Shown piece by piece: positions 1,362 through 17,798 of a DNA stretch of 33,443 nt. The stretch covers positions 64,001 through 97,443 of the IMG/VR virus record IMGVR_UViG_3300020045_015898, one strand, 5' to 3'. Numbering within the stretch: the stretch's first letter is position 1; each line of letters starts with the position of its first letter. A program made the position numbers and the translations under genes. Origin of the DNA: a virus. Taxonomy: Duplodnaviria > Heunggongvirae > Uroviricota > Caudoviricetes > Crassvirales. The notes beneath the pieces are model-generated. The model did no database searches and was not told the DNA's origin. It saw only the letters and a list, made by a program, of their open reading frames with translations.

Positions 1362-4300
1362 TTAACAGGTTAATGGGTTTTCACTCGTATTTGTTTCGTC
1401 TTCTTCTGACAAAGGTAATGCTTTATTTTCTTTCTCTCTAACTGGAGATAACATATCTTCTTTTAAAAATAATCCTCTAGCTCTAGCTTCATCCATAAAC
1501 TCATTAATTTGAGCCTTTTGAGACTCACTAATGTTATTTTCAGATATTACCGAGTTAGTTGATTTCTTGTCGTATTGATATTCAACTATGCTACCATTAT
1601 TGTATTTTGCTCCAAGTTTAAAAGTTCTAACGTAAGTTGGCATGAACTTTTCTTTCTCATTGCCATTTTTATCAACAACTGTACTTTTAGACATTCCTAC
1701 TAATTTATAAAGAACGGTAGTTTCAGAAGGAATACCACTATATTCTCCATTATCTTTGAAAACTCTTGAAACAAATTCAGGATAAGTTCCAGATCCATCT
1801 TTAGAAAGTCCAGTCATAATACCTCCTTTAGTTTCAGTTCCTTCATCGTAAACAAATCCGGTTGATGCAATTGTATTTCCAACTCTCTTGATGTTTTTAG
1901 AAGATACTCTTTGAACTATCTTTCTATCGGCAGAAGAGTGTCTGAACATTTGGTCCCTAAAATCTTCACTCAAGTCCATAGCGTTCATTTCTTGATGAAT
2001 AGCTTTGATGTGTTCTGATACTCCTGCATTAACTAATGCTTCATGAGGAATATGAGTAAAGAATTGATTTAAATTAGTTTTAAATCCAGATTGGCTAAAT
2101 GCGTATCTAATTAATCTATTTCCTAAAACCCTCTCTTCTTTAACGTTACTTCTTAACAATTCAACCCAAGCTCTATATATTTTATTGTTATAAGTCTTAG
2201 GCTTATTCTTGCTACTAATTTTCAAGAAATTATATCCCGCAGAACTTTTTATTTCTAGTTCTTGTATTAAGAAATTAGTAGATCCGTCTTCTTTCATTTT
2301 ATATATATCTTCCGGAACTTGTCTAAATAGTAGATCAATGTCATTTAAGTTTTCTTTGAAAATTTCAAGTCCAGACATAGCGTAAGAATAGAAGTCAGCA
2401 GAAATGCTTTTTATAAACTCTTCATTTGTAGATAACGCTCCCTTTCCAGTTCTTTCAGACATGTTATTTATTGTTGATTGAAGAGTTGGATTTGCAGATA
2501 TGAATAAATCATTATCTACTACTAACTTGTTAACCCAATCAATACCATTTTGTCTATAAGTACCAGTAAATGTATCTTTAAATTTATCAACGAAACCTTG
2601 AATCTTATCGTTGAATAATACATTTTCGTACTTATTTTTAGCAACCATCATTTGAGCAAAATCTCCTGCATCAGGAGTTTTAGACGCTCCTACAGCTTCG
2701 GCAAAGAATTTTGATTTTTCTTGAAAGTACTCAAAAATATTAAGAGTTTCTTCTTGCATCGCTACTTCTTCTTCAGTGAAATTACTCATATCTTTATCTT
2801 TGCTGAACTTTTTAATAGTCTCTTCTAATTGTTTAAAAGAGTATTTCTTAAGATAGTTTTCAACATCAATAGCGTTGATAGGTTTTTTTCCTAATCCATT
2901 TGACTTTCTTACAAACTCAGTAGCATTAAATCTTTCACCATCAATTTCTAATTCTTGAGAAGTTATACCTTCTGAATTTTTTGTCGTTCTAGTCATCTCA
3001 GAAAGCATTGGCTGAGCAATAAATCTATTTACCCATTCAACTGGAGTACCTGCGCGCAGCAACATAAATGTAACTCCTGAAGTTATTCCATTGTGATTTC
3101 CTCTAGAGATATATGGATCTTTAGCAATATCTACGTAAGCATTTAAAAATGCTGAGATTGCATCTGCAATAGCGTGTCCGTCGTTTATGTCATATTCATT
3201 ATCAAACTTTGTATTACCAAAATTATCTTTGGCGCCTATACCTAAGTATCCGTCAAAAGTTATATTTTGATGTCTATTTACCATGTGATCTACAAGTTGA
3301 TTAGCAGTTTGAGCTACACCAATCTTTCCAGATAAGTATTCAAATTTAGTTTTCATTTGGTAGGTAGGAGAATAAAAAGTCAAATCTTCCAGAGAAGTCT
3401 CCGGAAACATTCCAACAATATCGTCCTTGAAAAATGAAGCATCAATAGACGTCATGACCTTATCGTAAGCAGATTCGCTCTTAAGAATTGAAGAGTATAA
3501 ATCAATTAATCTATTCTGAACAGCCTTCATGCTTTTTGAATTCTCATCATGCGGAACAGCAGTTACTTTTCCAGTAGTTCTATCTACGTGAAGATTTGGC
3601 ATCATTACGTACATTTTATCAATATCAAAATCCGAACCAGTCTTAGCCGGAACAGCATCGTATGCGATTATTGAATCTCCAACTCCAGGAGGAAGTATAC
3701 CTACAATTTCCATCGCGTCATTAGACGACATTCCTTGATTAGGAATCCTGTATGTAACTAACTGCAAAGCAGAAGGATCTATCATAGCCATTAACTGCTT
3801 ACCTGACATTCCATTCCAATCAGTTCCTTCCGGAAGTAATTTAAGTAATGCTGAGTGAGGCATAAAACATTGTCCAGGCATGTAAGTCTTGGTTGCTTTG
3901 TCATAGTGTGGCGGTTTCAATCCTTTCTTATCGTAATTATCAGACACAATCTTAATACCAGATTTCTCTGTATCGCTAATCGCGTCGAATCCAAACTGGC
4001 TAACTTGAATAAATGAACCACCATTAGTGTAAACCTTTGTCAATTGTTTATTCATCATAGACATGAATACGTTCTCAACTTTATTTCTAATTTGAGGTAT
4101 TGCGTCAAATGGTAAATCTTTTTCAAGTGCTGCAAGTATGTTGTCATTTCCACCTCTTGATTTAAACTCAGATATAAGAGAAGAGTAAACTCTATCCATA
4201 TTATTTATCTTCATTTTACCAGTAGATGCGTCTTCTTTAATGTCAAACTCTTCCATCAAACTAGCTTTACCCATGTCAGATAAATTAGATAACGTAGAGT

Positions 4301-7300
4301 GTATCATTTCAAGAATTTTATCTCCTTGAATTTCTTCTCCATTAAAGTTGTAAATTCCATTTACATCTATACCGGCCAAGATGTTCTTTTGAATTTGTGA
4401 CCCAACCATTGTCTCATGAGCAAGTTTTGTAGGAAGATCTTGTTGTAGTTTCCAACCTCTATTTTTTAAAGGAACAGGATTTAATTCAAAATCAACTTTC
4501 ATGTCTCCATTTGGTTCGTGAATTAGTGTAGGAGCAGTAGCTCCAACTTTAATTCCATCAATAGTCACAACTTCGTGTATTTCATCTTTACCAGAAAGAG
4601 TATTTCCGTCTTTATCCTTTGTCATTTTATCCAGCAAAGCTTGCATTGGAGTTCCTTTTACTAGCTGAGGTATAAGTACTGCTTGAGAGTATTTAAGATA
4701 AACAGGGACAGTAGAATTAAGCTCAAAGTAAACTCCTTTCATTGGCTGAGCAACTAATTTCATTTCATTTTTAGATAGCTTTTGACCTACTTTTCCATTT
4801 TTAGGATTAACATACATCATTTTCTCCCAAGCAGATTGATGAGATTCAGGACCAGTAGTCCATTGACCTAATCTTTCCTTAAGGAATTTCCATCTTCTTG
4901 GGGTAATCCAGGCTTGAGCATCAGTTGAGTTTACCCCACCTTTATTGTATGCGTCAGCAATAGACTTGTCTTTTACAGACTCTCTAATTAAATCTACATA
5001 TCTAGAAGATATTTCAACTCCTTTCACAGTTGCTTGATTAAAATACACATGGTCATTAAGTGATAGAAACAATTGTAATCCATCAGTATATGACGCCGGA
5101 GTTCTCTTAATCATGTCAGACATGTTTTTAAAGTATGCAGGATCTCCTAAGAATAATTTGTTGTACTCAATTGTATTTATAATACTATTCATAAAGAAGT
5201 CTCCAGACATTGCACGAACCGGATCTCTAGAACCTTCATAAGCTCCAATTATATTCTCATCAACAGACAAGTTTGTCGCAACTTCAGCAGTGTGAATAAT
5301 TCCCATGTCGTCCATGTTCTTTAAATTCTCATCCAGTCTAGTTACTAATGCTTTTTTTATTGATTCTTTAACTATAGCTTTTTGTTCATTAGTCATTCCA
5401 GAAGTTGAGTACATTCCATTTTCTTGACCCAACGGTAATCCGTCTTTGTATAATGTAATATATTCTAAAGAATCTTTATCCATGTTTTCTGGAGATAAGC
5501 TAGGAAAAGTTTGTGATTTAAGTCCATTAGGAATTCCTTTACCTGTAGTATGATAATGCACTATTAATTTTTCAGGACTCAAAGTAGCTAATTCATTGCT
5601 AACTTTTTTCATTCTATTATACTCATCTTCAAAGTAATCAGATAAAACAGTTAAGGTCTCATCATTAATATACCATTCTCCATCAACATAATCAATTTTG
5701 GAATCAAAAGTTGGCATGCCTTCAATCTCAATCTTTCTACCTTTATCAGCAGCAAGAAGAGTTTGTGCGTAATTTTTTCCTCCAGCTTTGTGGCCAAGAG
5801 TTTTAGCGATTGCGTTATTAAGCGCATCGACAGGTGATATTTCTTTGGTGTCTTTACCGTCATTTTCCCCTTTAGATTTGAATGAACTATCTAGTCCAAT
5901 TTGTATTTCTGAGATTCTTCTTTTTGATTCCTTTTCTCTTTTGCTTGCATTTGAAGCTATTAAAACTCCTTGTCTACTTTTCTCTGCATTAAGCAAATAT
6001 TTAAGCCAAAGAGAACCTTTATGATAAGCACTTACCGCAAGTTTATCTAATTCAGAAGCGTCTCTCTTCCATTCGTTTATTACGTTATGTAAGTAAGATG
6101 GGTTTGAGTAAGCAAAATAACTTTTACCATTATTAGCAAGAACATTGTTTTCTGCCATATTTATTTCAAATAAAGCTTTTGCTCTTGATAATAATTTTAC
6201 AACTTCCTGATTGTCAAATGGATTCACTTTTTCATCTCCAGCAATCAATGATGTATTTGGATCAAGTATGTATTTAAGCATATAGTCAGTTGACTTAAAC
6301 AAATCAAGTATTGACTCAACAGCTTTTTCTTCTCCTCCTGTCATTCTCATATAAGAAATAACATCGTTATTAGTTATTTCGGCGCCAAGACCGTTGAATA
6401 AATCAACTACTTTTGGTATTTGCAACATAACTTGTCTCATTTGAACTGGATGCTCTTGGCCAGCTATTAATTGACCAAAATCTCTCATATTCTCAGTAAG
6501 AGCAATCTTAGTTTGAGCGATAGCGTCCCTAGCGTCGTCATTTAATTCATATCCATTAGTGAATGTCTTAGCGAATTTAACTCCCCACTGACCTCGTATT
6601 TTACTGTCTCTTGAATTGGTAGAAGTAGCATTGATTATTTTATACTTATTTGTAGTTTTATCTACCTCAGTTACATAAAAGTTAAGTTTTGATTTAGCAA
6701 AAGTTTGAACGAATTGAGCTTGTTGATTGAGGTCCATTTTGTTTACTCTTTCTAATAGTCCACCCATCCATGGCTTAACTGAAGCTAAAGCTTTCATTTC
6801 AATCTTCATTATGTCTAGCGCGTTGACTAAATCGCCGCCATTACTATTGTGAGATACTATATCTGACAATAATGGCTGAAGCGTACCCCAAACATCATCG
6901 AATTCTGCAAACTTAGCTTTACCTAAGAAAGAGTCTCTTTTGTGGCGAATCCTTGGAACAGAAAGATCTTTTACATCTTGCTCACTAAGATTTCCAATAA
7001 CTTCTCCTTTTAAATGTCTTTGTCTCAATCCGTTGACTTGAACTTGAGTTAATTTATGTCTTTCAGCAACTCTTTTTGAAGCAGCAGAAAACTCAGGATT
7101 ACCTTCAGTGTCCGGCAATAAACTAAGAACTAATTTAATTCTTGCTGGAGCTGTTTCTTTTGAATTAGTTTCAAATGATTCAGCAATATTTATTCCTCCT
7201 GCCTTATCGTCTTCTCCTAATTCAGTTTCGTATTCTCCTTTTTCATTAAGAATGCTTTGACGATAAGTTAATCCTAATTCTTCAATTTTATTCAACACTT

Positions 7301-7868
7301 CAATCTTAAAATCTTCTTTATATTTTAAAACCAAATCAGCTCTTCTCAATAATTCTGGATCAGACACTGAATTTTTGTAGTTTTGAATAAAGTTTTCTAT
7401 AGTAGAGATTACTTTTTTTGGATTTAATTTTGATAAATCTTCAAAGTTCTCAGCCATATTCTCTGTAACAAACGCATTAAGAATTATTTTAGAAACCTCT
7501 TCAGATTGATCTGAAGTCATTCCAGGGAACTTAATCTTGTTGATATATTTTCTTATTCCATTAGGAAATTGAAAGTAATACTGATCGTATTCAGTAACTT
7601 TGTCTCCTTTGATTACTCTTTTTTTAATCAATTTAGGTTCTCCTTGGTCATTAACTCTAGTAGATATTTTAGAACCTAAAGGTAAATTAATATCTTCTGA
7701 ATGCCCATTCGAAAACGAAGTAACATAGTCTCCAAAAAGATCTATGAATTTATTTCCACTAATTTTAGAGTACTCAGCAAGTGCCGCGTCTTCTCCTAAG
7801 ATTCTTTCAAGTTCTTTGTACAGTCCGGATTCTCTCCCATCTGTCTTTGCAAATACTTTACAAGCCAT
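1362..7868 (-). CDS. Virion-packaged single-chain DNA-dependent RNA polymerase (double-psi beta-barrel, phi14:2 gp66-like)
   Basis: 2168 aa. Catalytic GSDFDIDK (DFDID at 3618-3632, residues ~1413-1417), upstream YRIPNQG, and STDAQAWITP and LFLGDPAYFK segments. Size and motif match phi14:2 gp66 as recalled. Confidence 0.92.
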   Translation of the reverse strand: MACKVFAKTDGRESGLYKELERILGEDAALAEYSKISGNKFIDLFGDYVTSFSNGHSEDINLPLGSKISTRVNDQGEPKLIKKRVIKGDKVTEYDQYYFQFPNGIRKYINKIKFPGMTSDQSEEVSKIILNAFVTENMAENFEDLSKLNPKKVISTIENFIQNYKNSVSDPELLRRADLVLKYKEDFKIEVLNKIEELGLTYRQSILNEKGEYETELGEDDKAGGINIAESFETNSKETAPARIKLVLSLLPDTEGNPEFSAASKRVAERHKLTQVQVNGLRQRHLKGEVIGNLSEQDVKDLSVPRIRHKRDSFLGKAKFAEFDDVWGTLQPLLSDIVSHNSNGGDLVNALDIMKIEMKALASVKPWMGGLLERVNKMDLNQQAQFVQTFAKSKLNFYVTEVDKTTNKYKIINATSTNSRDSKIRGQWGVKFAKTFTNGYELNDDARDAIAQTKIALTENMRDFGQLIAGQEHPVQMRQVMLQIPKVVDLFNGLGAEITNNDVISYMRMTGGEEKAVESILDLFKSTDYMLKYILDPNTSLIAGDEKVNPFDNQEVVKLLSRAKALFEINMAENNVLANNGKSYFAYSNPSYLHNVINEWKRDASELDKLAVSAYHKGSLWLKYLLNAEKSRQGVLIASNASKREKESKRRISEIQIGLDSSFKSKGENDGKDTKEISPVDALNNAIAKTLGHKAGGKNYAQTLLAADKGRKIEIEGMPTFDSKIDYVDGEWYINDETLTVLSDYFEDEYNRMKKVSNELATLSPEKLIVHYHTTGKGIPNGLKSQTFPSLSPENMDKDSLEYITLYKDGLPLGQENGMYSTSGMTNEQKAIVKESIKKALVTRLDENLKNMDDMGIIHTAEVATNLSVDENIIGAYEGSRDPVRAMSGDFFMNSIINTIEYNKLFLGDPAYFKNMSDMIKRTPASYTDGLQLFLSLNDHVYFNQATVKGVEISSRYVDLIRESVKDKSIADAYNKGGVNSTDAQAWITPRRWKFLKERLGQWTTGPESHQSAWEKMMYVNPKNGKVGQKLSKNEMKLVAQPMKGVYFELNSTVPVYLKYSQAVLIPQLVKGTPMQALLDKMTKDKDGNTLSGKDEIHEVVTIDGIKVGATAPTLIHEPNGDMKVDFELNPVPLKNRGWKLQQDLPTKLAHETMVGSQIQKNILAGIDVNGIYNFNGEEIQGDKILEMIHSTLSNLSDMGKASLMEEFDIKEDASTGKMKINNMDRVYSSLISEFKSRGGNDNILAALEKDLPFDAIPQIRNKVENVFMSMMNKQLTKVYTNGGSFIQVSQFGFDAISDTEKSGIKIVSDNYDKKGLKPPHYDKATKTYMPGQCFMPHSALLKLLPEGTDWNGMSGKQLMAMIDPSALQLVTYRIPNQGMSSNDAMEIVGILPPGVGDSIIAYDAVPAKTGSDFDIDKMYVMMPNLHVDRTTGKVTAVPHDENSKSMKAVQNRLIDLYSSILKSESAYDKVMTSIDASFFKDDIVGMFPETSLEDLTFYSPTYQMKTKFEYLSGKIGVAQTANQLVDHMVNRHQNITFDGYLGIGAKDNFGNTKFDNEYDINDGHAIADAISAFLNAYVDIAKDPYISRGNHNGITSGVTFMLLRAGTPVEWVNRFIAQPMLSEMTRTTKNSEGITSQELEIDGERFNATEFVRKSNGLGKKPINAIDVENYLKKYSFKQLEETIKKFSKDKDMSNFTEEEVAMQEETLNIFEYFQEKSKFFAEAVGASKTPDAGDFAQMMVAKNKYENVLFNDKIQGFVDKFKDTFTGTYRQNGIDWVNKLVVDNDLFISANPTLQSTINNMSERTGKGALSTNEEFIKSISADFYSYAMSGLEIFKENLNDIDLLFRQVPEDIYKMKEDGSTNFLIQELEIKSSAGYNFLKISSKNKPKTYNNKIYRAWVELLRSNVKEERVLGNRLIRYAFSQSGFKTNLNQFFTHIPHEALVNAGVSEHIKAIHQEMNAMDLSEDFRDQMFRHSSADRKIVQRVSSKNIKRVGNTIASTGFVYDEGTETKGGIMTGLSKDGSGTYPEFVSRVFKDNGEYSGIPSETTVLYKLVGMSKSTVVDKNGNEKEKFMPTYVRTFKLGAKYNNGSIVEYQYDKKSTNSVISENNISESQKAQINEFMDEARARGLFLKEDMLSPVREKENKALPLSEEDETNTSENPLTC

Positions 7869-7925: not shown

Positions 7926-10900
7926 TTAGAATCCACAACCTGCTTCATCTTGGAAATCATTATAAAAATCTGACAATGAATCTTCCTCGTTGTATTGAGC
8001 TAGATTAACATCATCATTGCTAACTTGATTAAAATCAGGAACTTTCTCAGTTTCTAATTGAACATCAAGTGTGCTAGTTGAATTATTAATTTCATCAAGA
8101 GCAGATAAATCTGCTTGTTCTTGCTCTATCGCTAATTCATTTGACAAATCTAATGAATTCATTCCCATTAATAGCATTCTTGGATCACTAATTTTAGGTG
8201 ATTCTGCAGAATCGTCTTTTCCAAAGATATCTTCAATAGTAAGTTCTTCTTCAACAGGATTCTTTGATTGGTAAATTTCTATAGCAAAACCAATAGAATC
8301 TTTTATTCTTTTAGCGGCTTCATCTTTATCAGTTACTAATAATGTTCTAGCTTTAGCTCCTTCAAATGGACCAACTAATCCCATAGATTCGAGCATATCA
8401 ATATATTTTCCAGCTTGATTGTACCCTAATTTCAATCCTCTTTGAATTGCTGAGGAAGAGCCTGAGCCATTTAGAATAACTACTTCTGAAGCCTGAATGA
8501 ATTTGTCAACTCTTTCTTTATCAGCTAAGCCTGACATGTCTACAAATTCCTGATAAATCTGATTAATCTCTTCATCAGATATCTCTCTAGCAGGAGCTTT
8601 TCCTTGCATAGCTTTAGCATATCTTTCGCTAGCTTCTTTAATTCCAGCTTTATTCTTTGCTGTAATTTCAGCTTGTATCTCTTTCTTTCTATCCAAAGGA
8701 ACTGTATCTATTGCTCTTTGCTCCTCTACAGTAAAATCAGTTATTGACTTGCCATTAATCATCTCTCTGACTAAGTCTTCTCCTGTTGTAGTTATTATTT
8801 CTTCAGAACCAACTTCTTCAGTTTTGCCTGTAAATTTACCGGTGTATTTTGCCATTACTTTGGCTCCAACTGACGATGTAGATAAGATTTCATTACCATT
8901 AGAAGCTGAGCCTGGAGTGATATTGATTATAGTATTTAATGCAGTCGCTGCATAAACCTGATTACCAATAGTTATTTTTTCATACTTAAGAAGTCCTGAT
9001 TTAAGTAAAGCTTTGTTGATTAATTTAAAGTCTTTCTTAGGATCTAATTCTTTACCAGTTTTTTCATTAACAACTATCCCTCCATCTTTAATAACTAAGT
9101 TAAAATTACTTTTAGAATCTTTCTTAATCACAACTTTTATTTCATTAGTATCCTGCTCAGGCAAGTTCGACATGTCGTCTTGTTTTCCTTTTGCAGCTTT
9201 TGCTACTACTGGAGCCGGCTGAGTTTGAACAACTACCTTTGTAGCAGGACCAGAAACTTTCTCTGCATTGTACTTGTCATTAACTGCTTGTTTTGCTAAT
9301 TCTGCAGTATCTCTTAATATTTCTACAGCAGTATTAGAAGAGTCATAGTATGTTGCGGCGAATTTACCATTGGTTGATTTGTCTGAATACGTACCAGCTT
9401 TTTCTGACATCTTTCTTCTTTCAGATTTAGGCTTTCCTCCTGGAACTGGAGGAGTGTGTTGTAATAGTTGAGCTGGATTAGAGACTGGAACTGGTTTAAC
9501 AGTGTCAGGAGCTTTAATATAAATATCAGTTTTACCTCCAAATAAAGGTCCATTGGTTACCGCATCAGTATTTATCAATCCAGAAGAGATTGCGTAATCT
9601 CTATATGCCGGTGAAGATTGCCATAATCCAACATTAAATTGTCTTCTTTTAGTGTTCATTAAAAACTCAACTAGTTTCTCATGATTGAATAAAGATTTTG
9701 GAGTAACTTTTAAATCTGCATTACTAAACTTTACCCACTCACCACTAATAAACAACTCTGAAGCTTTCCCTTCAGTTTGAGGAGATACGTATGTAAAGAA
9801 ATCTACTATATCCATTAGAGAAGGATCTGCTTTCTCCATGGCGTCCAACTCTTCTTTCATTGTTTCAAGAATTTTAAGTCTTGTTTCTTCCTTCATTTGT
9901 GACAAAGGAGTTTCAAACTTATTTTCTTTAGTGATTACAGAAGTCAACAATCCTGCTATTATTTCAGCTTCATTTTGACTATGCTTTTTAACATTAAGTT
10001 TTAATGGAAATTTAGTTCCATCAGCTTTTGGTACTGATAAAAATATTGTACCTCTCATTGGAGTCTTTGCCCCAGTAGTTCCTGTAAGTAAAGGAAGTGT
10101 TAATTGTCTACCTATAAATTCTTTATGACGCTCACCATCCATATTCATTAACTCTCCGAATTCATTTGTGTACATTAAGCTTTCTTCTATAGCTTGAGTT
10201 ACTTGATTTGGTGATGCTTCAGCTCCTTTTAAATCAAACAATTCATCCATTATTGGACCTAAGTGTTGTAAATCACCAATTTTATTTTCTGGTATTACTC
10301 CGTCAATAGCTGGTGCCGCATTAACTTTTCCTCCGTATTGAACAGTTACTTTTGAAGTAGTAGTTTTAGATGGATTAGAATTCATTTGATCTATAAATGC
10401 TTTTCTAATAGGAAAATCTTGTCTAGCCCAAGCTGCTTCGTATCCTGAATTTTGCCCTTCAAGTCTAGCTGACAAGAATGCATTTCTTTCATCAAACTCA
10501 GTGTCTCCGTCTTGCTTATCTATTACTACTTTTAAAGGAAGGTGATTGTATACGTTTGCATTGATGATTCCATTATTGAAGTCGTCTATAGCTTGTTTTA
10601 CTAATTGAGGTTGCTTCGCTCCTGCATAAACTACTGTTCCTGGCTGAATAGTAACCTGAGTTCCTATTTTGTTTTTTCCATTCAACATCCAGTCATTGTA
10701 ATTTTTATTGCCAGTAGCTCCATAAATACTAGTATTCTCTGATGCTTCTGACATTTTTTTCTTAGCAATGTCGCTTTGTTTAACCATGGCTCCATGAATA
10801 TCAACCTCTTCTCCAGCAAGTTCATCTTCTAAATTTTTTCCTACTGGAATTATATTATTATCTGGAACAGCTGCCGGATTGTTTATAGCTGAAGCCTGTG

Positions 10901-13235
10901 ATTCTTTAGTAAGAGTTGATTTATGCTCGTCTTGCTTAGCTTTAGCGGCACTATTTTTCTCTTCTATAGCTATCTCATCAATTCTTTTATCTACCAACGC
11001 GTGTAGTTCAGCTTTCTTTTCTTTTGAAGTTTTTGTGTCTTCATCAATATTAGCTTTAGCCTGCATTGCCTGTTCTACTGATTTAAGACTCTTAACTCTA
11101 TTTCTCATTTGAACCATTCTTAATTCTGCCTGATGAGATTTAGATTGAAGCTTAATGTTTTCTTTTTGCATCAAGTTTATAGCGTCAGTAAGTAGAGTAT
11201 GCTCTGTAGCTTTTACTATAAGGTCCTCAGAAGATTGCTCATATCCAGCGCCAATTAACTTGTCGCTATCTTTCTCATCTTTTGTTCTTGGATCGTTTGA
11301 ATTAAGTTCAACCATTTTAAGATTTAACTTGTCAATTATCTTTTTATTCTTGTCTATTAAGGCTTGTCTGTTTTCTATCTGATACTTTGATTCAGTATTT
11401 TTCATTGCAGCTTCGTGAATCTCATTTGCTTTTTTAAGAGCAACTAAATTTCCTTTTGTTGAGAATTTATCCTGATAATGACTAGTTAATTTGTCTGCAT
11501 TAGGAACTGAATCTTTTATGTTTTGAATCTCCTTAGTAACTTCTTTTGTTCTATTATCAAATGATTTTACATAATGGTCATTTGAAGCCATTTTAGCGGC
11601 AATATTACTATCGTACTTATTGGAATGCTTAAGATAACTTTCTCTTATGCTATGAGCTTGCGATATCAAGCTAGGAACGTATTTCTTAAACAATTCAGGA
11701 TCTAATTCAATACCTAAATCTTTTTCAAATCCAGCTTGCTCAGCTTGAGACATTTTTGACATTCCTTGTAAGGATTCAATATACTCAGCAAATTTTCCGT
11801 TATCGATAGCATCTACAGCCATGTGTACTCCAGAACCGTCAATTGCAGCTTGTCTTTTAACCGGATCTCCAGATTGGTCAGCCTTTGCAATTTCATTCTG
11901 CATTAATTGAAATGAAGCTCCGCGTCTAGTAATATAATCTCCTTGTATACTAGCATAATTTGCTTCTGCATTTTTTCTTTCTGTAGATTTAAATAATTCA
12001 GACGTTCCTTTCCCGGCCGCTTGAAATATATTTCCACCTAATCCTCCCCAGAAGGCAGAAGTAAGCATTTCCTTGTCGCCAATTTTAGAACTTGTTTTTT
12101 GATCGTATTCTTTTTCAGTAATCAATCCTGCTTTTAAATCAGAAAGTAATTTACCTCTCTCAGCTACATAATATTGGTAAGATTCTTCCGCACCCTCTGA
12201 TGCGAATGTCGCACCTCCGGCCATTAATGCTTCTTTTATTCCTGGTTTAACTCCACTTGCAGTTATTTCAGCAATCTTAGATTCCATCTTCATGGACACT
12301 GGATTGAATACTTTTCCTAATGCCAAGTATTGAGGTATGTCTTGAAGCAACATCGCCCAGTCAGATCTGTAAGTAGACGAAGCTCCTTCTGATGCCAATT
12401 GAGTTGCTTCTTCTTCTGTGAAGTACTCTTTAGTTTTTGGATTAATTCTAGACTGAAGTGATGCTTTTTGTTCGTTAAATACTCCTGAAGCTTCCATAGA
12501 GTTCTCTATGTGTCTTGAAACTATAGCTTGAGTAATTCCTTCTGCCATCCATGTTTCGTACTTACCCATTCTTGAAGCTATATCTAAAGATTTGCTGATT
12601 ATACCGGCTCCTTTAGAAGCAGTTTTACCAAGCATTCCTAATACTTTAGTTGCGGCTCCGGAAGGAATAAGCATAGACAATGATGAAGCAACAGAAACTC
12701 CGTTACTAAACCACCATCCGGAATCTCCCATTCCAGAATCTTTTACTTGATGAATAGCCATATTCTCTTGAGCAAATTCACGAGTGTCTTTACCAAGTTC
12801 AGTCATCCAGTTTCCCCAGTTTTGCTCTGTTCCTCCAAGATAATCTATAGCACTTCCTATCTCTCCAATATAACCAAGTCCTTCTATAGTACCACCAATA
12901 ACCTCTCCAATAACAGCTTGCCCAACCATGTTTCTTGCTTGCTCAAACCATCCTTGTTGATTGGCTCTATCTTCATTAAGAGCCTCAACTCCTCCTGGGC
13001 CAAGAACTATGTTGCCTCTGTTATAGTCAGTTTTGTAATCTTCAACATCAATACCTACGTGATAATTAACGTCTCTTTTACCTAAGCTTTTTCTATCAAT
13101 TCCACCAGGAGCAACGTCGTACTCCTGTGGTTTTAATTTTGGTGCTTTTACTGGCGGATCTATTTTTGTACCTTTATCAATTGTCTTAACTGATTCTTCG
13201 GAACTAACTATATTAAAATCTTTTTCTTCTGCCAT
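7926..13235 (-). CDS. Large ejected virion cargo protein (phi14:2 gp65-like position) with C-terminal FtsK-gamma domain
   Basis: 1769 aa. N-terminal Gly-rich hydrophobic helices, long coiled-coil region, and a C-terminal string of small domains including SSSAIQRGLKLGYNQAGKYIDMLESMGLVGP. Lies directly upstream of the vRNAP gene. Confidence 0.75.
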   Translation of the reverse strand: MAEEKDFNIVSSEESVKTIDKGTKIDPPVKAPKLKPQEYDVAPGGIDRKSLGKRDVNYHVGIDVEDYKTDYNRGNIVLGPGGVEALNEDRANQQGWFEQARNMVGQAVIGEVIGGTIEGLGYIGEIGSAIDYLGGTEQNWGNWMTELGKDTREFAQENMAIHQVKDSGMGDSGWWFSNGVSVASSLSMLIPSGAATKVLGMLGKTASKGAGIISKSLDIASRMGKYETWMAEGITQAIVSRHIENSMEASGVFNEQKASLQSRINPKTKEYFTEEEATQLASEGASSTYRSDWAMLLQDIPQYLALGKVFNPVSMKMESKIAEITASGVKPGIKEALMAGGATFASEGAEESYQYYVAERGKLLSDLKAGLITEKEYDQKTSSKIGDKEMLTSAFWGGLGGNIFQAAGKGTSELFKSTERKNAEANYASIQGDYITRRGASFQLMQNEIAKADQSGDPVKRQAAIDGSGVHMAVDAIDNGKFAEYIESLQGMSKMSQAEQAGFEKDLGIELDPELFKKYVPSLISQAHSIRESYLKHSNKYDSNIAAKMASNDHYVKSFDNRTKEVTKEIQNIKDSVPNADKLTSHYQDKFSTKGNLVALKKANEIHEAAMKNTESKYQIENRQALIDKNKKIIDKLNLKMVELNSNDPRTKDEKDSDKLIGAGYEQSSEDLIVKATEHTLLTDAINLMQKENIKLQSKSHQAELRMVQMRNRVKSLKSVEQAMQAKANIDEDTKTSKEKKAELHALVDKRIDEIAIEEKNSAAKAKQDEHKSTLTKESQASAINNPAAVPDNNIIPVGKNLEDELAGEEVDIHGAMVKQSDIAKKKMSEASENTSIYGATGNKNYNDWMLNGKNKIGTQVTIQPGTVVYAGAKQPQLVKQAIDDFNNGIINANVYNHLPLKVVIDKQDGDTEFDERNAFLSARLEGQNSGYEAAWARQDFPIRKAFIDQMNSNPSKTTTSKVTVQYGGKVNAAPAIDGVIPENKIGDLQHLGPIMDELFDLKGAEASPNQVTQAIEESLMYTNEFGELMNMDGERHKEFIGRQLTLPLLTGTTGAKTPMRGTIFLSVPKADGTKFPLKLNVKKHSQNEAEIIAGLLTSVITKENKFETPLSQMKEETRLKILETMKEELDAMEKADPSLMDIVDFFTYVSPQTEGKASELFISGEWVKFSNADLKVTPKSLFNHEKLVEFLMNTKRRQFNVGLWQSSPAYRDYAISSGLINTDAVTNGPLFGGKTDIYIKAPDTVKPVPVSNPAQLLQHTPPVPGGKPKSERRKMSEKAGTYSDKSTNGKFAATYYDSSNTAVEILRDTAELAKQAVNDKYNAEKVSGPATKVVVQTQPAPVVAKAAKGKQDDMSNLPEQDTNEIKVVIKKDSKSNFNLVIKDGGIVVNEKTGKELDPKKDFKLINKALLKSGLLKYEKITIGNQVYAATALNTIINITPGSASNGNEILSTSSVGAKVMAKYTGKFTGKTEEVGSEEIITTTGEDLVREMINGKSITDFTVEEQRAIDTVPLDRKKEIQAEITAKNKAGIKEASERYAKAMQGKAPAREISDEEINQIYQEFVDMSGLADKERVDKFIQASEVVILNGSGSSSAIQRGLKLGYNQAGKYIDMLESMGLVGPFEGAKARTLLVTDKDEAAKRIKDSIGFAIEIYQSKNPVEEELTIEDIFGKDDSAESPKISDPRMLLMGMNSLDLSNELAIEQEQADLSALDEINNSTSTLDVQLETEKVPDFNQVSNDDVNLAQYNEEDSLSDFYNDFQDEAGCGF

Positions 13236-15635: not shown

Positions 15636-17798
15636 TTAAGCTTTTTTGGTAGAATCTACTTGATCTTTAAGCTTTTTATACTTTCCTTTCCAGTCATAAT
15701 CAGCTCCCATCAATTCAGGGAACTTCTTATACAGTTCTTCTTGACCTACAGCTCCTAAGTCTGCCGCAACTGCAGTTTTTAATCTGCTTTTTTCAGTGTC
15801 ATAAGCACCTTTATTTCTTGCTCTAATATCCTGAGCAAGAGTTTGTTGTTGAAGATTAGTTGTGTCAACTCCAAGATTAAATGATTGTTCTTGAGCATTC
15901 TCTCTAGCGTTTGCTTCTTGACTCTTCATAAATGCATCGCTTAATGCTTTTGTTGCATTTAATTGCGTGCCTAGTAAATTTGCTCTTGCAGCATTTCCAG
16001 AGCCTTCAGAAGAACTCAATATTGCTTCTCTATTACCTGCAGTTTCTTCTCTAACTAAATTAATCAATCCTTGTTCGTCTACTACATTTTTTTTATATCT
16101 AGTACTTAATTCAGGAGTTGTTTCTTGTTCAGGTTTCTTTAGATTAGCTAATTGCATTATGTTTCCAATTACAGGAGCGTATCTTAAAGAGTCTTTATTA
16201 TCAAGTACTGCGTCTTTAATTTTATTTGCTACTGATTTAGGTTGTTTTGATTTCCAGTCATCATAATACTTGTCAAGACTCTCTTGAACTCCAGTGACTC
16301 CAGTTGCATCAGTTGCATCAGTTTCTTTTTTTATTAAGCTCATCAAGTCTGCATCCATCTCCTTAGATACGCTTGGCTTTATAAATTTTCCATCTGCTCC
16401 ATATCCGGATGTTTTTACAACTGCTTTTACAGTTTTTGTTTTTGAATTATGTTTATGTCCTTGAGGTCCTCCTTCGTGAAACTTATTTAAATTTCCTCCC
16501 ATATTAAATTGATTGTCGTTGACTGCGGCATCTGCGTAAGTTGCATTTCTGTTAGCAATATTTGCATCTTTCTGTTGTTTCTTTGCTCCTATTATACCGG
16601 CTGCTCCTCCAATTACTGCTCCTGCTGCTGCTCCCCAAGGTCCTAATGCCATTCCTGCAGAAGCTCCTTTTGTAGCTCCAGCAAATGCTGCATTACCAAC
16701 TTTTTTACCTTCAACTTTGACTCTACCTGATGTGTCCACTCCTGTTGGACCAAAAGCTTCTTTACCAAGTTCTAATGCTGTAGCTCCCATTTTAGCATAT
16801 CCCATTACTCCTGGTCCACTTGATCCTTCTTGAGTTCCTGTTTCCGCTGAAATACTAGATTCTGTAGAATTGATTGGCCCCATTGAAGGTGACTGCATTG
16901 GATTTACCTGTCCTGGATTTAAAGTAAAGTAAGGATTGTTATTTTTATAATATTGATTTTGATCTCCTCCAAGATCGAATTTATTGCTTTCTTCTTCTCC
17001 TGTAGCTTTAAAATTACTTGCAGTATTAGCTAAGGACATTATTGATGAAGATATCGGTTGATTATTAGCTTGAATTATAGGAGAAAATCTTTGTTCTGCA
17101 GTTTCTGGCATGAAATGCATATCGTCTTCATCTCCTCCTAATGCCATTTTACTTTGTCCTTGCATGTAAGCTTTCCATTGAGGTGTTCTTTGAACTGCCA
17201 TCATTTCTTCTTGATTAACGAATTCTCTGTGTCTCAATGGATCGAACCCTGCTTCTCCTGCGTTTTTACTGTATAAGTAAAATCCACTTTTTCCAGTTTC
17301 TCCAGAAGTAACTCCGGGTTGATATCTCACAATTTGCTTTGTATCAAAATCCATATTATCATTAGTTGGCAAATCACTTATACCTGTAAGCCCTACAACT
17401 TTTCCCTTTATGTTTGACTTAGGAACTGGAGTTTCTTCGCCTGGACCACCGTAAGCATATTGATTACCTCCATAAGCGTTTTGTATTTGACTCATTAAAT
17501 CTTCTTCTGAACTTTGCTCTTGATTATACTCTTGAGTTATTTCATTTTCATCTAAAGGCATTCCTTCTGAACCAGCGACTAAGTCTCCTCCACTTCTTTC
17601 CGGCTGCTCTTGAGCTTCTTTTTGTGCTTTTACATGCTCTTGCATTTGCTTAAGCCTGTCAAGCATTTCTTTTTCAGTGTTTATTGATTCAGGATCAGTT
17701 CTTTCTTTGAATTTAGATTGAATCTTCTTGCTAGCATCTGCGAAGCTAAGTCCGTCTATGTATCTAGGAAGCTTAAATTGTTCTAACATTGTGTTCAT
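15636..17798 (-). CDS. Cargo protein 1-like ejection protein with glycine-zipper membrane segment
   Basis: 720 aa. Low-complexity regions with repeated [FYM]xxGG motifs and a hydrophobic GASAGMALGPWGAAAGAVIGGAAGIIG segment. Position after the muzzle resembles crAss001 C1 as recalled. Confidence 0.65.
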   Translation of the reverse strand: MNTMLEQFKLPRYIDGLSFADASKKIQSKFKERTDPESINTEKEMLDRLKQMQEHVKAQKEAQEQPERSGGDLVAGSEGMPLDENEITQEYNQEQSSEEDLMSQIQNAYGGNQYAYGGPGEETPVPKSNIKGKVVGLTGISDLPTNDNMDFDTKQIVRYQPGVTSGETGKSGFYLYSKNAGEAGFDPLRHREFVNQEEMMAVQRTPQWKAYMQGQSKMALGGDEDDMHFMPETAEQRFSPIIQANNQPISSSIMSLANTASNFKATGEEESNKFDLGGDQNQYYKNNNPYFTLNPGQVNPMQSPSMGPINSTESSISAETGTQEGSSGPGVMGYAKMGATALELGKEAFGPTGVDTSGRVKVEGKKVGNAAFAGATKGASAGMALGPWGAAAGAVIGGAAGIIGAKKQQKDANIANRNATYADAAVNDNQFNMGGNLNKFHEGGPQGHKHNSKTKTVKAVVKTSGYGADGKFIKPSVSKEMDADLMSLIKKETDATDATGVTGVQESLDKYYDDWKSKQPKSVANKIKDAVLDNKDSLRYAPVIGNIMQLANLKKPEQETTPELSTRYKKNVVDEQGLINLVREETAGNREAILSSSEGSGNAARANLLGTQLNATKALSDAFMKSQEANARENAQEQSFNLGVDTTNLQQQTLAQDIRARNKGAYDTEKSRLKTAVAADLGAVGQEELYKKFPELMGADYDWKGKYKKLKDQVDSTKKA

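Follow-up and report, generated by a model that had tools for sequence, protein, structure and literature searches.

What would a winged helix of the bacterial DNA translocase FtsK do in a giant protein that a crAss-like phage presumably carries in its virion? Phages of the crAss-like group rank among the most abundant that are known, and to our knowledge their giant virion cargo proteins carry almost no annotation. The question is raised by a stretch of 33,443 nucleotides (hereafter the window; positions 64,001 to 97,443 of the IMG/VR virus record IMGVR_UViG_3300020045_015898), in which a preliminary description had placed an FtsK gamma domain towards the C-terminus of a 1769-residue open reading frame (ORF). 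The ORF protein indeed carries a true, motor-less FtsK-gamma winged helix. The ORF, a crAss-like 'RNA polymerase (RNAP)-associated' protein, and its domain are located as follows.

7926..13235, minus strand: the 1769-residue ORF (P0002), a crAss-like 'RNAP-associated' virion cargo protein as judged from gene order, BLASTP and homologues.
8334..8510, minus strand: the FtsK_gamma winged helix-turn-helix, residues 1576-1634, supported by Pfam, AlphaFold2, Foldseek and matches to PDB sequences.

The 59-residue peptide translated from 8334-8510, identical to that cited in the preliminary description, matches the Pfam profile FtsK_gamma (PF09397) over residues 1577-1634, equivalent to profile positions 5-62 of 63, with 59.8 bits in the context of the full protein (E 2e-16) and 65.6 bits as an isolated peptide, the gathering cut-off of the family being 30.6 bits. 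Scanned in six frames, the entire phage genome gave this single site at 65.6 bits and no second gamma domain. Searched with phmmer against the sequences of the PDB, the peptide retrieved FtsK gamma entries only (2j5o, 2ve8/2ve9, 2j5p and 5dcf, the last being a XerD-gamma fusion). Residues 1555-1650 were modelled with AlphaFold2 from an alignment of 46 sequences (mean predicted local distance difference test (pLDDT) 88, predicted template modelling (TM) score 0.80); the model has the layout H1-H2-H3-wing with one additional helix on each side, whereby H1 spans residues 1573-1589, H2 1594-1601, the recognition helix H3 1605-1617 and the wing approximately 1620-1632. Compared with the PDB by Foldseek, the 13 top-ranked matches of this model are all FtsK gamma chains, headed by 2ve9_A, a gamma domain bound to the FtsK orienting polar sequence (KOPS), with probability 1.00, a target-normalised TM of 0.85 and a root-mean-square deviation of 1.2 Å over 58 columns. 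Fold and sequence membership are thus those of the FtsK/SpoIIIE gamma domains (PF09397; 2VE8/2VE9, 2J5O, 2J5P, 5DCF), of which the ORF domain also keeps the Q-R-x-x-K-L-G-Y-N stretch and the lysine and arginine of the wing; it differs from them in being motor-less, present once per polypeptide, changed at fixed positions and evolving much faster.

The absence of the motor, equally part of the preliminary description, is borne out. No FtsK_SpoIIIE or AAA domain was detected by Pfam in the ORF protein at E ≤ 1; the motor domains PF17854 and PF01580, which precede gamma on its N-terminal side, are not found in the protein, and PF01580 has no match in the whole genome. As the RecA-like alpha/beta motor is absent, the ORF protein is not a translocase. 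No other Pfam domain scores above its cut-off, which leaves FtsK_gamma as the sole recognizable domain of the ORF protein. The possibility that the protein is arranged like FtsK, anchored in the membrane by its N-terminus and contacting DNA with its C-terminus, was considered and rejected, the Kyte-Doolittle profile having given just two weakly hydrophobic segments (1.06-1.13).

Which protein has acquired this domain? The phage genome is a 97,443-bp complete virus record of 32.7% GC, of which the window comprises the last 33.4 kb (64001-97443), and its best database relatives are Crassvirales. The final 121 bases of the genome repeat its first 121, which represents a terminal repeat or the overlap of a circular assembly, and GC and AT skew change sign near 22 kb and near 60 kb, in keeping with two gene blocks that are transcribed in opposite directions. 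Around the ORF, the genes follow the order g071-g070-g069-g068-g067-g066-g065 of the Cellulophaga phage phi14:2 (Steigviridae), whose gp65 to gp71 are all annotated from tandem mass spectrometry-based virion proteomics, gp66 being the catalytic virion RNA polymerase (vRNAP). In BLASTP, residues 937-1240 of the ORF align with phi14:2 gp67 (E 2e-13, 22% identity over 310 aa), and residues 84-458 resemble crAssphage gp45, annotated as 'RNAP associated protein fused to zincin protease' (E 1e-15). The two neighbours that place the ORF in the cargo set are the following.

1362..7868, minus strand: virion RNA polymerase of 2168 aa, directly downstream of the ORF, homologue of phi14:2 gp66 (BLASTP).
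15636..17798, minus strand: upstream cargo gene of 720 aa with a Crassvirus cargo protein 1 domain (Pfam crAss_CARG1, 27.8 bits, cut-off 27).

The downstream polymerase aligns with gp66 at 641 bits and 33% identity over 1509 aa and keeps the DFDID catalytic motif, GSDFDIDKMYVM. Based on the crAss_CARG1 match, the 720-aa ORF is likely the cargo protein 1 equivalent of PhiCrAss001 gp45. The 1769-aa ORF itself is, as far as position and weak, although significant, sequence similarity can tell, the orthologue of phi14:2 gp67. The preliminary description, which had compared it to gp65, was therefore correct about the neighbouring vRNAP and named the wrong counterpart. With gp67 the ORF shares the position next to the vRNAP, the weak but significant homology and a similar size (1797 versus 1769 aa), but gp67, unlike the ORF, possesses neither FtsK_gamma nor any other Pfam domain. 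The RNAP-associated cargo proteins gp47, gp49 and gp50 of PhiCrAss001, virion proteins by mass spectrometry, are like the ORF encoded next to the vRNAP.

That the protein is injected, as the preliminary description had assumed, can be presumed by analogy. In PhiCrAss001, the giant RNAP-associated proteins are virion cargo according to mass spectrometry, with an estimated six or so copies of each, and are expected to leave through the tail before the DNA (PMC10172136); for gp45 of the same phage, ejection from the N- to the C-terminus has been proposed by Bayfield et al. (PMC10172136). Tail, cargo and vRNAP genes surround the ORF on the same strand, consistent with packaging and injection, and to regard the ORF product as an ejected virion protein is a reasonable inference from these relatives. 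The ORF gene has no match among GenBank phages by megablast, and the neighbouring genes mostly have no matches in PHROGs and Pfam.

Where within the cargo protein the domain resides becomes apparent from the organization of the polypeptide, which is composed of a long conserved core and a C-terminal region of discrete segments.

9216..13235, minus strand: conserved core, residues 1-1340, present in all close homologues (BLASTP segment map of 36 homologues).
8847..9140, minus strand: small beta-rich module, residues 1366-1463 (AlphaFold2 pLDDT about 70-83; alignment A2).
8610..8783, minus strand: helical linker, residues 1485-1542 (AlphaFold2 helices; variably present in relatives).
8262..8603, minus strand: gamma cassette, residues about 1545-1658, consisting of the winged helix with a lead-in helix before it and a C-terminal helix after it (alignment A2).
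7929..8243, minus strand: acidic C-terminal tail, residues 1665-1769, ending in GCGF (alignment A2 and charge; mostly low pLDDT).

The AlphaFold2 model of residues 1340-1769 (mean pLDDT 64) accordingly consists of a linker, the beta-rich module, the helical linker, the gamma unit (1554-1658) and a mostly disordered tail, with low-confidence linkers on either side of the cassette (1539-1549 and 1661-1699). The beta-rich module carries a net charge of +8 and is highly conserved in near relatives; it has no match in Pfam or PHROGs, and an ESM Atlas query with residues 1366-1545 gave no usable match. In alignment A2, the helical linker is missing or shortened in the homologues P0004 and P0010. The tail (net charge -25, counted over 111 aa) is kept in all 16 aligned relatives, with or without the gamma cassette, and displays invariant L, N, D, G and C columns besides the terminal GCG[F/I], whereby C1767 is the sole cysteine of the protein. 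The tail could act as a signal for packaging or docking, or mimic DNA.

Is the gamma domain an integral part of this protein family? A search of 5.8 billion proteins gave 36 homologues, and the survey of these gp67-type proteins, in place of the gp65-like orthologues initially envisaged, identified the domain in seven (P0002, P0003, P0004, P0007, P0010, P0005 and P0018). Four homologues (P0008, P0011, P0009 and P0006) that are 65-77% identical do not have gamma and keep the modules on both sides, and in P0006, P0008, P0009, P0011, P0039, P0040 and P0044 the cassette is a clean indel in alignment A2. The cassette therefore behaves as one insertion/deletion unit between predicted flexible linkers and, being patchily distributed and cleanly missing from relatives of up to 77% identity, is dispensable for the core job of the protein. 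P0005 is 89% identical overall versus about 30% in the cassette, which holds a very divergent winged helix with a sub-cut-off FtsK_gamma score of 26.8 bits; this discrepancy argues for replacement rather than drift, so that the cassette looks like it has been swapped by recombination. P0018, of which the core is 39% identical, has a more canonical gamma (82 bits) at another location, immediately behind the core; this copy resembles cellular gammas (50%) more than it does the gamma of the ORF (38%). This domain is likely a second, independent recruitment; the gamma tree, which with its 61 columns is too short to resolve forks, shows long phage branches and P0018 among the cellular sequences and is also compatible with a single origin.

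Other domains occupy the same region in other lineages. The variable region of P0021 (2672 aa) holds an AlkB-like 2-oxoglutarate (2OG)-Fe(II) oxygenase (46.7 bits), a Rho_N-like segment below the Pfam cut-off and an AAA-like segment, and that of P0030 (2207 aa) contains DUF7831 (122 bits). Based on these sequence comparisons, the last approximately 430 residues constitute a swap zone into which lineages insert different small domains: gamma at two positions, the AlkB-like oxygenase, Rho-N and DUF7831. This observation suggests that the C-terminal region of the cargo protein serves as an effector-delivery platform.

A domain that comes and goes by recombination might be a selectively neutral passenger or a purely structural spacer, for which the patchy distribution and the replacement of the P0005 cassette by a very divergent winged helix could be brought forward. 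Substitution rates speak against such a view. Two pairs were used to determine the ratio of nonsynonymous to synonymous substitution rates (dN/dS), the ORF versus P0004 and versus P0007, leaving out P0004 versus P0007, for which the region labels are off under P0004 numbering. Between the ORF and P0004, dS is 0.62 in the core and 0.70-0.82 in the cassette, and dN/dS rises from 0.036 in the core to 0.13 in the winged helix and to 0.22 in the cassette; compared with P0007, cassette and winged helix gave 0.16-0.17, the cassette standing at 0.16. As dN/dS is 0.13-0.22 at a dS resembling that of the core (about 0.7-0.8), the gamma domain is under purifying selection and functional rather than decaying. 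Considering in addition that the cassette is kept in several lineages from independent metagenomes and that the second, different gamma of P0018 at another position suggests repeated recruitment, a mere passenger or spacer is highly improbable.

From where was the domain acquired? Of 1.84 billion representative proteins, 6372 were matched at E ≤ 1e-3 in a HMMER scan. Among the single-domain matches, the nearest have in common a signature beginning with QQGS.SL[IL], many short nearest matches are fragments on contigs under 2 kb, and the nearest full-length cellular gammas belong to FtsK of Flavobacteriales, Microscillaceae and Balneolia. The source is likely a Bacteroidota-type FtsK, which renders the host origin put forward in the preliminary description plausible. 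The six Pfam-significant phage copies show 49-55% mean identity to the Bacteroidota FtsK gammas, and the phage branch measures about 1 substitution per site versus about 0.1 inside the cellular cluster.

Has the domain kept the activities of its ancestor? The phage copies were compared at the residue level, seven in number, with 39 Bacteroidota-type cellular FtsK gammas; E. coli numbering is used for these positions, and contact residues were assigned according to PMC5052618 and PMC2680272. Q1280, Q1281, R1297, G1299, R1300, D1303 and Q1304 are fixed in 38-39 of the 39 cellular gammas and vary in the phage copies, with Q/R/K/Q/K/R/Q at position 1297, K/R/I/R/K/R/N at position 1300 and M/M/M/M/I/Q/A at position 1304; the QQ pair at 1280/1281 is intact in none of the seven, P0018 alone having a Q there. 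The difference in the recognition helix noted early on (GYNQAGK as compared to GYNRAAR) is real. Kept in the phage copies are G1294, Y1295, A1298, an aspartate or glutamate at 1303 and 1306, and in the wing K1318 (seven of seven) and R1320 (six of seven), neither of which is a listed XerD contact. Retention of the two wing residues, in our view, lends mild support to retained DNA binding.

Recognition of KOPS and activation of Xer recombination have been dissected in E. coli. R1300, E1303 and E1306 play a part in reading KOPS but can be dispensed with for Xer activation, and the R1300A and E1303A mutants have lost KOPS reading and still support Xer recombination (Sivanathan et al., PMC2680272). 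XerD is contacted by Q1288, R1289, R1292, I1293, G1294 and N1296, with the peptide 1289-1297 being sufficient (Keller et al., PMC5052618); these residues all number among those that contact DNA, and R1297, which does not contact XerD, served as a control, its change having left recombination at the wild-type level (PMC5052618). In the ORF, the KOPS-recognition equivalents are K1610, D1613 and E1616, all conservative, with the neighbours equivalent to 1297 and 1304 changed, and the XerD-contact equivalents are, by sequence conservation, Q1598, R1599, K1602, L1603, G1604 and N1606, kept in five of the seven phage copies. The ORF gamma thus appears to keep a conservative version of both the KOPS and the XerD surface, and sequence cannot separate the two activities.

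Two rival explanations start from these surfaces. The domain could still read a KOPS-like motif of the host and act as a decoy in host takeover, with the cargo being sent to the nucleoid or competing with FtsK, thereby disturbing segregation and division. Proximity to the Bacteroidota FtsK gammas and the conservative K/D/E in place of the KOPS triad R1300/E1303/E1306 would fit such a role. Yet five positions fixed in the cellular domains (Q1280, Q1281, R1297, R1300 and Q1304) differ in the ORF, the long phage branch is contrary to the reading of a fixed host motif, and few monomeric gammas are unlikely to out-compete hexameric FtsK, so that we judge a decoy function to be rather improbable.

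Alternatively, the injected gamma might hijack a host protein, binding with its XerD surface a host Xer recombinase or another host protein and switching recombination on or off independently of FtsK. The retained XerD-contact equivalents, the position of the non-contact control R1297 among those that vary in the phage copies and the separability of KOPS reading from Xer activation can be cited in its favour. However, as the contact residues also touch DNA and are near-invariant in the compared FtsK gammas, their retention is uninformative, and K1318 and R1320 of the wing, outside the XerD contacts, are nevertheless kept. The phage genome contains no tyrosine recombinase. Moreover, a scan for dif-like sites with the E. 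coli and B. subtilis dif and the XerD-arm core, conducted without a Bacteroidota consensus, gave 23 matches versus 25-38 in Markov-resampled sequence, a weak negative in that no dif-like site rises above chance. There is no apparent benefit of such a switch for a phage with direct terminal repeats and without an integrase, and a hijack of this kind is considered unlikely. A bolder reading, in which the cassette is a motor-free effector whose Q-R-x-x-K-L-G-Y-N surface engages a host XerD-type recombinase or other FtsK clients at infection, is distinctly unlikely as well; if true, it would make the cargo C-terminus an effector-delivery platform that is equipped with gamma, the AlkB-like oxygenase, DUF7831 or Rho-N according to lineage.

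Does the domain instead read the phage genome? The preliminary description had favoured an orientation-sensing role, in which gamma as a sequence-specific sensor orients the entering DNA or places the vRNAP at early promoters. The adjacent vRNAP gene and membership of the protein in the RNAP-associated cargo set are in line with this proposal, and the variation of the recognition helix could reflect co-evolution with lineage-specific sites. The genome itself, however, offers such a sensor nothing to read. Searched for the canonical KOPS, the SpoIIIE recognition sequence (SRS) and the L. lactis motif, it holds no GGGNAGGG and one GAGAAGGG, whereby the KOPS of Bacteroidota may differ from these; GAAGAAG occurs 34 times on the plus and 35 times on the minus strand, mirroring the purine-rich codons of the two opposite gene blocks. 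A strand-skewed octamer, to be looked for according to the preliminary description, did not emerge: strongly skewed octamers all follow the coding strand, and none shows a polarity over the whole molecule that does not depend on gene direction. Nor does a Markov model single out any 8- or 10-mer as over-represented (maximal z 3.5 among about 65,000 words). With close relatives that manage without the gamma domain, and with the hexameric motor that gives FtsK its directionality absent, a reader of the phage genome is improbable. FtsK directionality results from the KOPS-directed loading of the hexameric motor by three gamma domains (PMC5052618, PMC3384302).

What role does this leave? The most likely one, to which we assign about an even chance, is that of an accessory double-stranded DNA (dsDNA)-binding tether on the ejected RNAP-associated cargo protein. 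A gamma-type winged helix would have been captured from a Bacteroidota-type FtsK into the variable, linker-rich C-terminal region of a giant cargo protein, which would be packed in the virion together with the RNA polymerase and expelled into the cell at infection. Located on flexible linkers near the C-terminus, the domain would be at the end that exits the capsid last, if the ORF protein leaves from the N- to the C-terminus, and could keep the cargo/RNA polymerase complex on DNA, most simply on the phage genome's leading part. In its choice of sequence it may be relaxed or shifted and would not be guided by the host KOPS. Because a single gamma binds weakly, avidity would be needed, which the several cargo copies per virion could supply. 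In this scheme, we infer the packaging and ejection of the ORF protein, the binding of DNA and the nature of the DNA bound. Analogy argues in its favour, as the partners of the other phage motor-less gammas (RdgC, GapR, PIF1, InPase plus C5-methylase, Mrr and the small terminase) all handle DNA. Further points in favour are the DNA-bound gamma 2ve9 as top structural match, the cargo gene context, the linkers around an indel-like cassette, purifying selection, the residues kept in the phage copies, and the earlier listing of FtsK winged helices and Rho-N in phage proteins predicted to be injected, with P0021 carrying the Rho_N-like segment in the corresponding region.

Several considerations weigh against a tether. 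There is no candidate target motif in the phage genome. The occurrence of gamma in only seven of the 36 homologues shows that the protein works without the domain, and therefore any role of gamma is auxiliary. Packaging of the C-terminus, which would have to survive virion maturation, is presumed. Two basic residues have been lost, with K1290 (K in 37 of the 39 Bacteroidota-type gammas) changed to G and R1297 (R in all 39) changed to Q, and the winged helix has a net charge of 0, so that the DNA affinity of gamma may be low. Finally, a single FtsK gamma binds weakly, with three being needed per KOPS (PMC5052618, PMC3384302).

How unusual is such a protein? FtsK winged helices and Rho-N/SAP have been described as rare predicted dsDNA-binding modules of the phage and plasmid 'polyvalent proteins', which are predicted to be injected (Iyer et al., 2017; PMC5512222); crAss-like phages are not mentioned in that work. 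Like these proteins, the ORF product is large, encoded among late virion genes and equipped with an FtsK winged helix as a non-catalytic add-on, and its homologue P0021 combines the Rho_N-like segment with the 2OG-Fe(II) oxygenase. On the other hand, polyvalent proteins are characterized by at least two domains of disparate activity, whereas the ORF has one recognizable domain on a large core, its scaffold being the RNAP-associated cargo protein of Crassvirales, and in the strict sense falls outside this class.

A motor-less, host-like FtsK_gamma is also located at the N-terminus of the small terminase of two phages of Bacillus, vB_BcM_Sam46 and Sam112, whose genomes hold few or no host KOPS/SRS and for which the authors leave the role of the phage gamma genes open (PMC8190038); Sam112 is matched by the ORF gamma in tblastn (H63). 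In Sam46/Sam112, however, the partner is a DNA-packaging initiator and the bacterial DNA-binding residues are kept, in contrast to the cargo protein of the ORF with several of them changed. Overall, 94 of 50,697 GenBank phage records hold a gamma-like sequence, none of them named as crAss-like. Motor-less gammas among the representative proteins comprise small multi-gamma proteins as well as fusions in which gamma is joined to DUF4236 or to Mrr-type nucleases, and in viral contigs and GenBank phages gamma is fused to RdgC, GapR, the PIF1 helicase and a giant protein with InPase and methylase. The RdgC-gamma form, found in L011, L018 and L031, is common in Pseudomonas and Vibrio phages; gamma-GapR occurs in L016, PIF1-gamma in L003:1008-3095 and Mrr_cat-gamma in P0051 and P0055. 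The giant protein is a polyvalent-type, 1392-aa ORF of an IMG/VR contig with a GC content of 0.67 (L007:6405-10580) that combines FtsK_gamma with InPase and a weak, sub-threshold C5 DNA methylase. In the RdgC, GapR, PIF1 and Mrr fusions, which recur in phages and mobile elements, gamma is a portable DNA-binding module, as presumably in the ORF, but the proteins are small, cytoplasmic proteins of replication and recombination or nucleases, derive mostly from high-GC phages and are not virion cargo. We found no description of a gamma fusion in crAss-like phages in the literature, in line with the preliminary description; the novelty claimed there is nevertheless overstated, as motor-less phage gammas as such are widespread and an FtsK winged helix in phage proteins predicted to be injected had been reported before (PMC5512222).

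With respect to its significance, the gamma cassette reveals no new mechanism. Gamma is the first recognizable functional module for this crAss-like giant cargo protein, a domain of about 100 residues and known fold that can be compared between relatives naturally possessing and naturally lacking the cassette. Beyond the individual domain, the swap zone in which it resides links the cargo of crAss-like phages to the strategy of 'polyvalent' injected proteins that other phages pursue.

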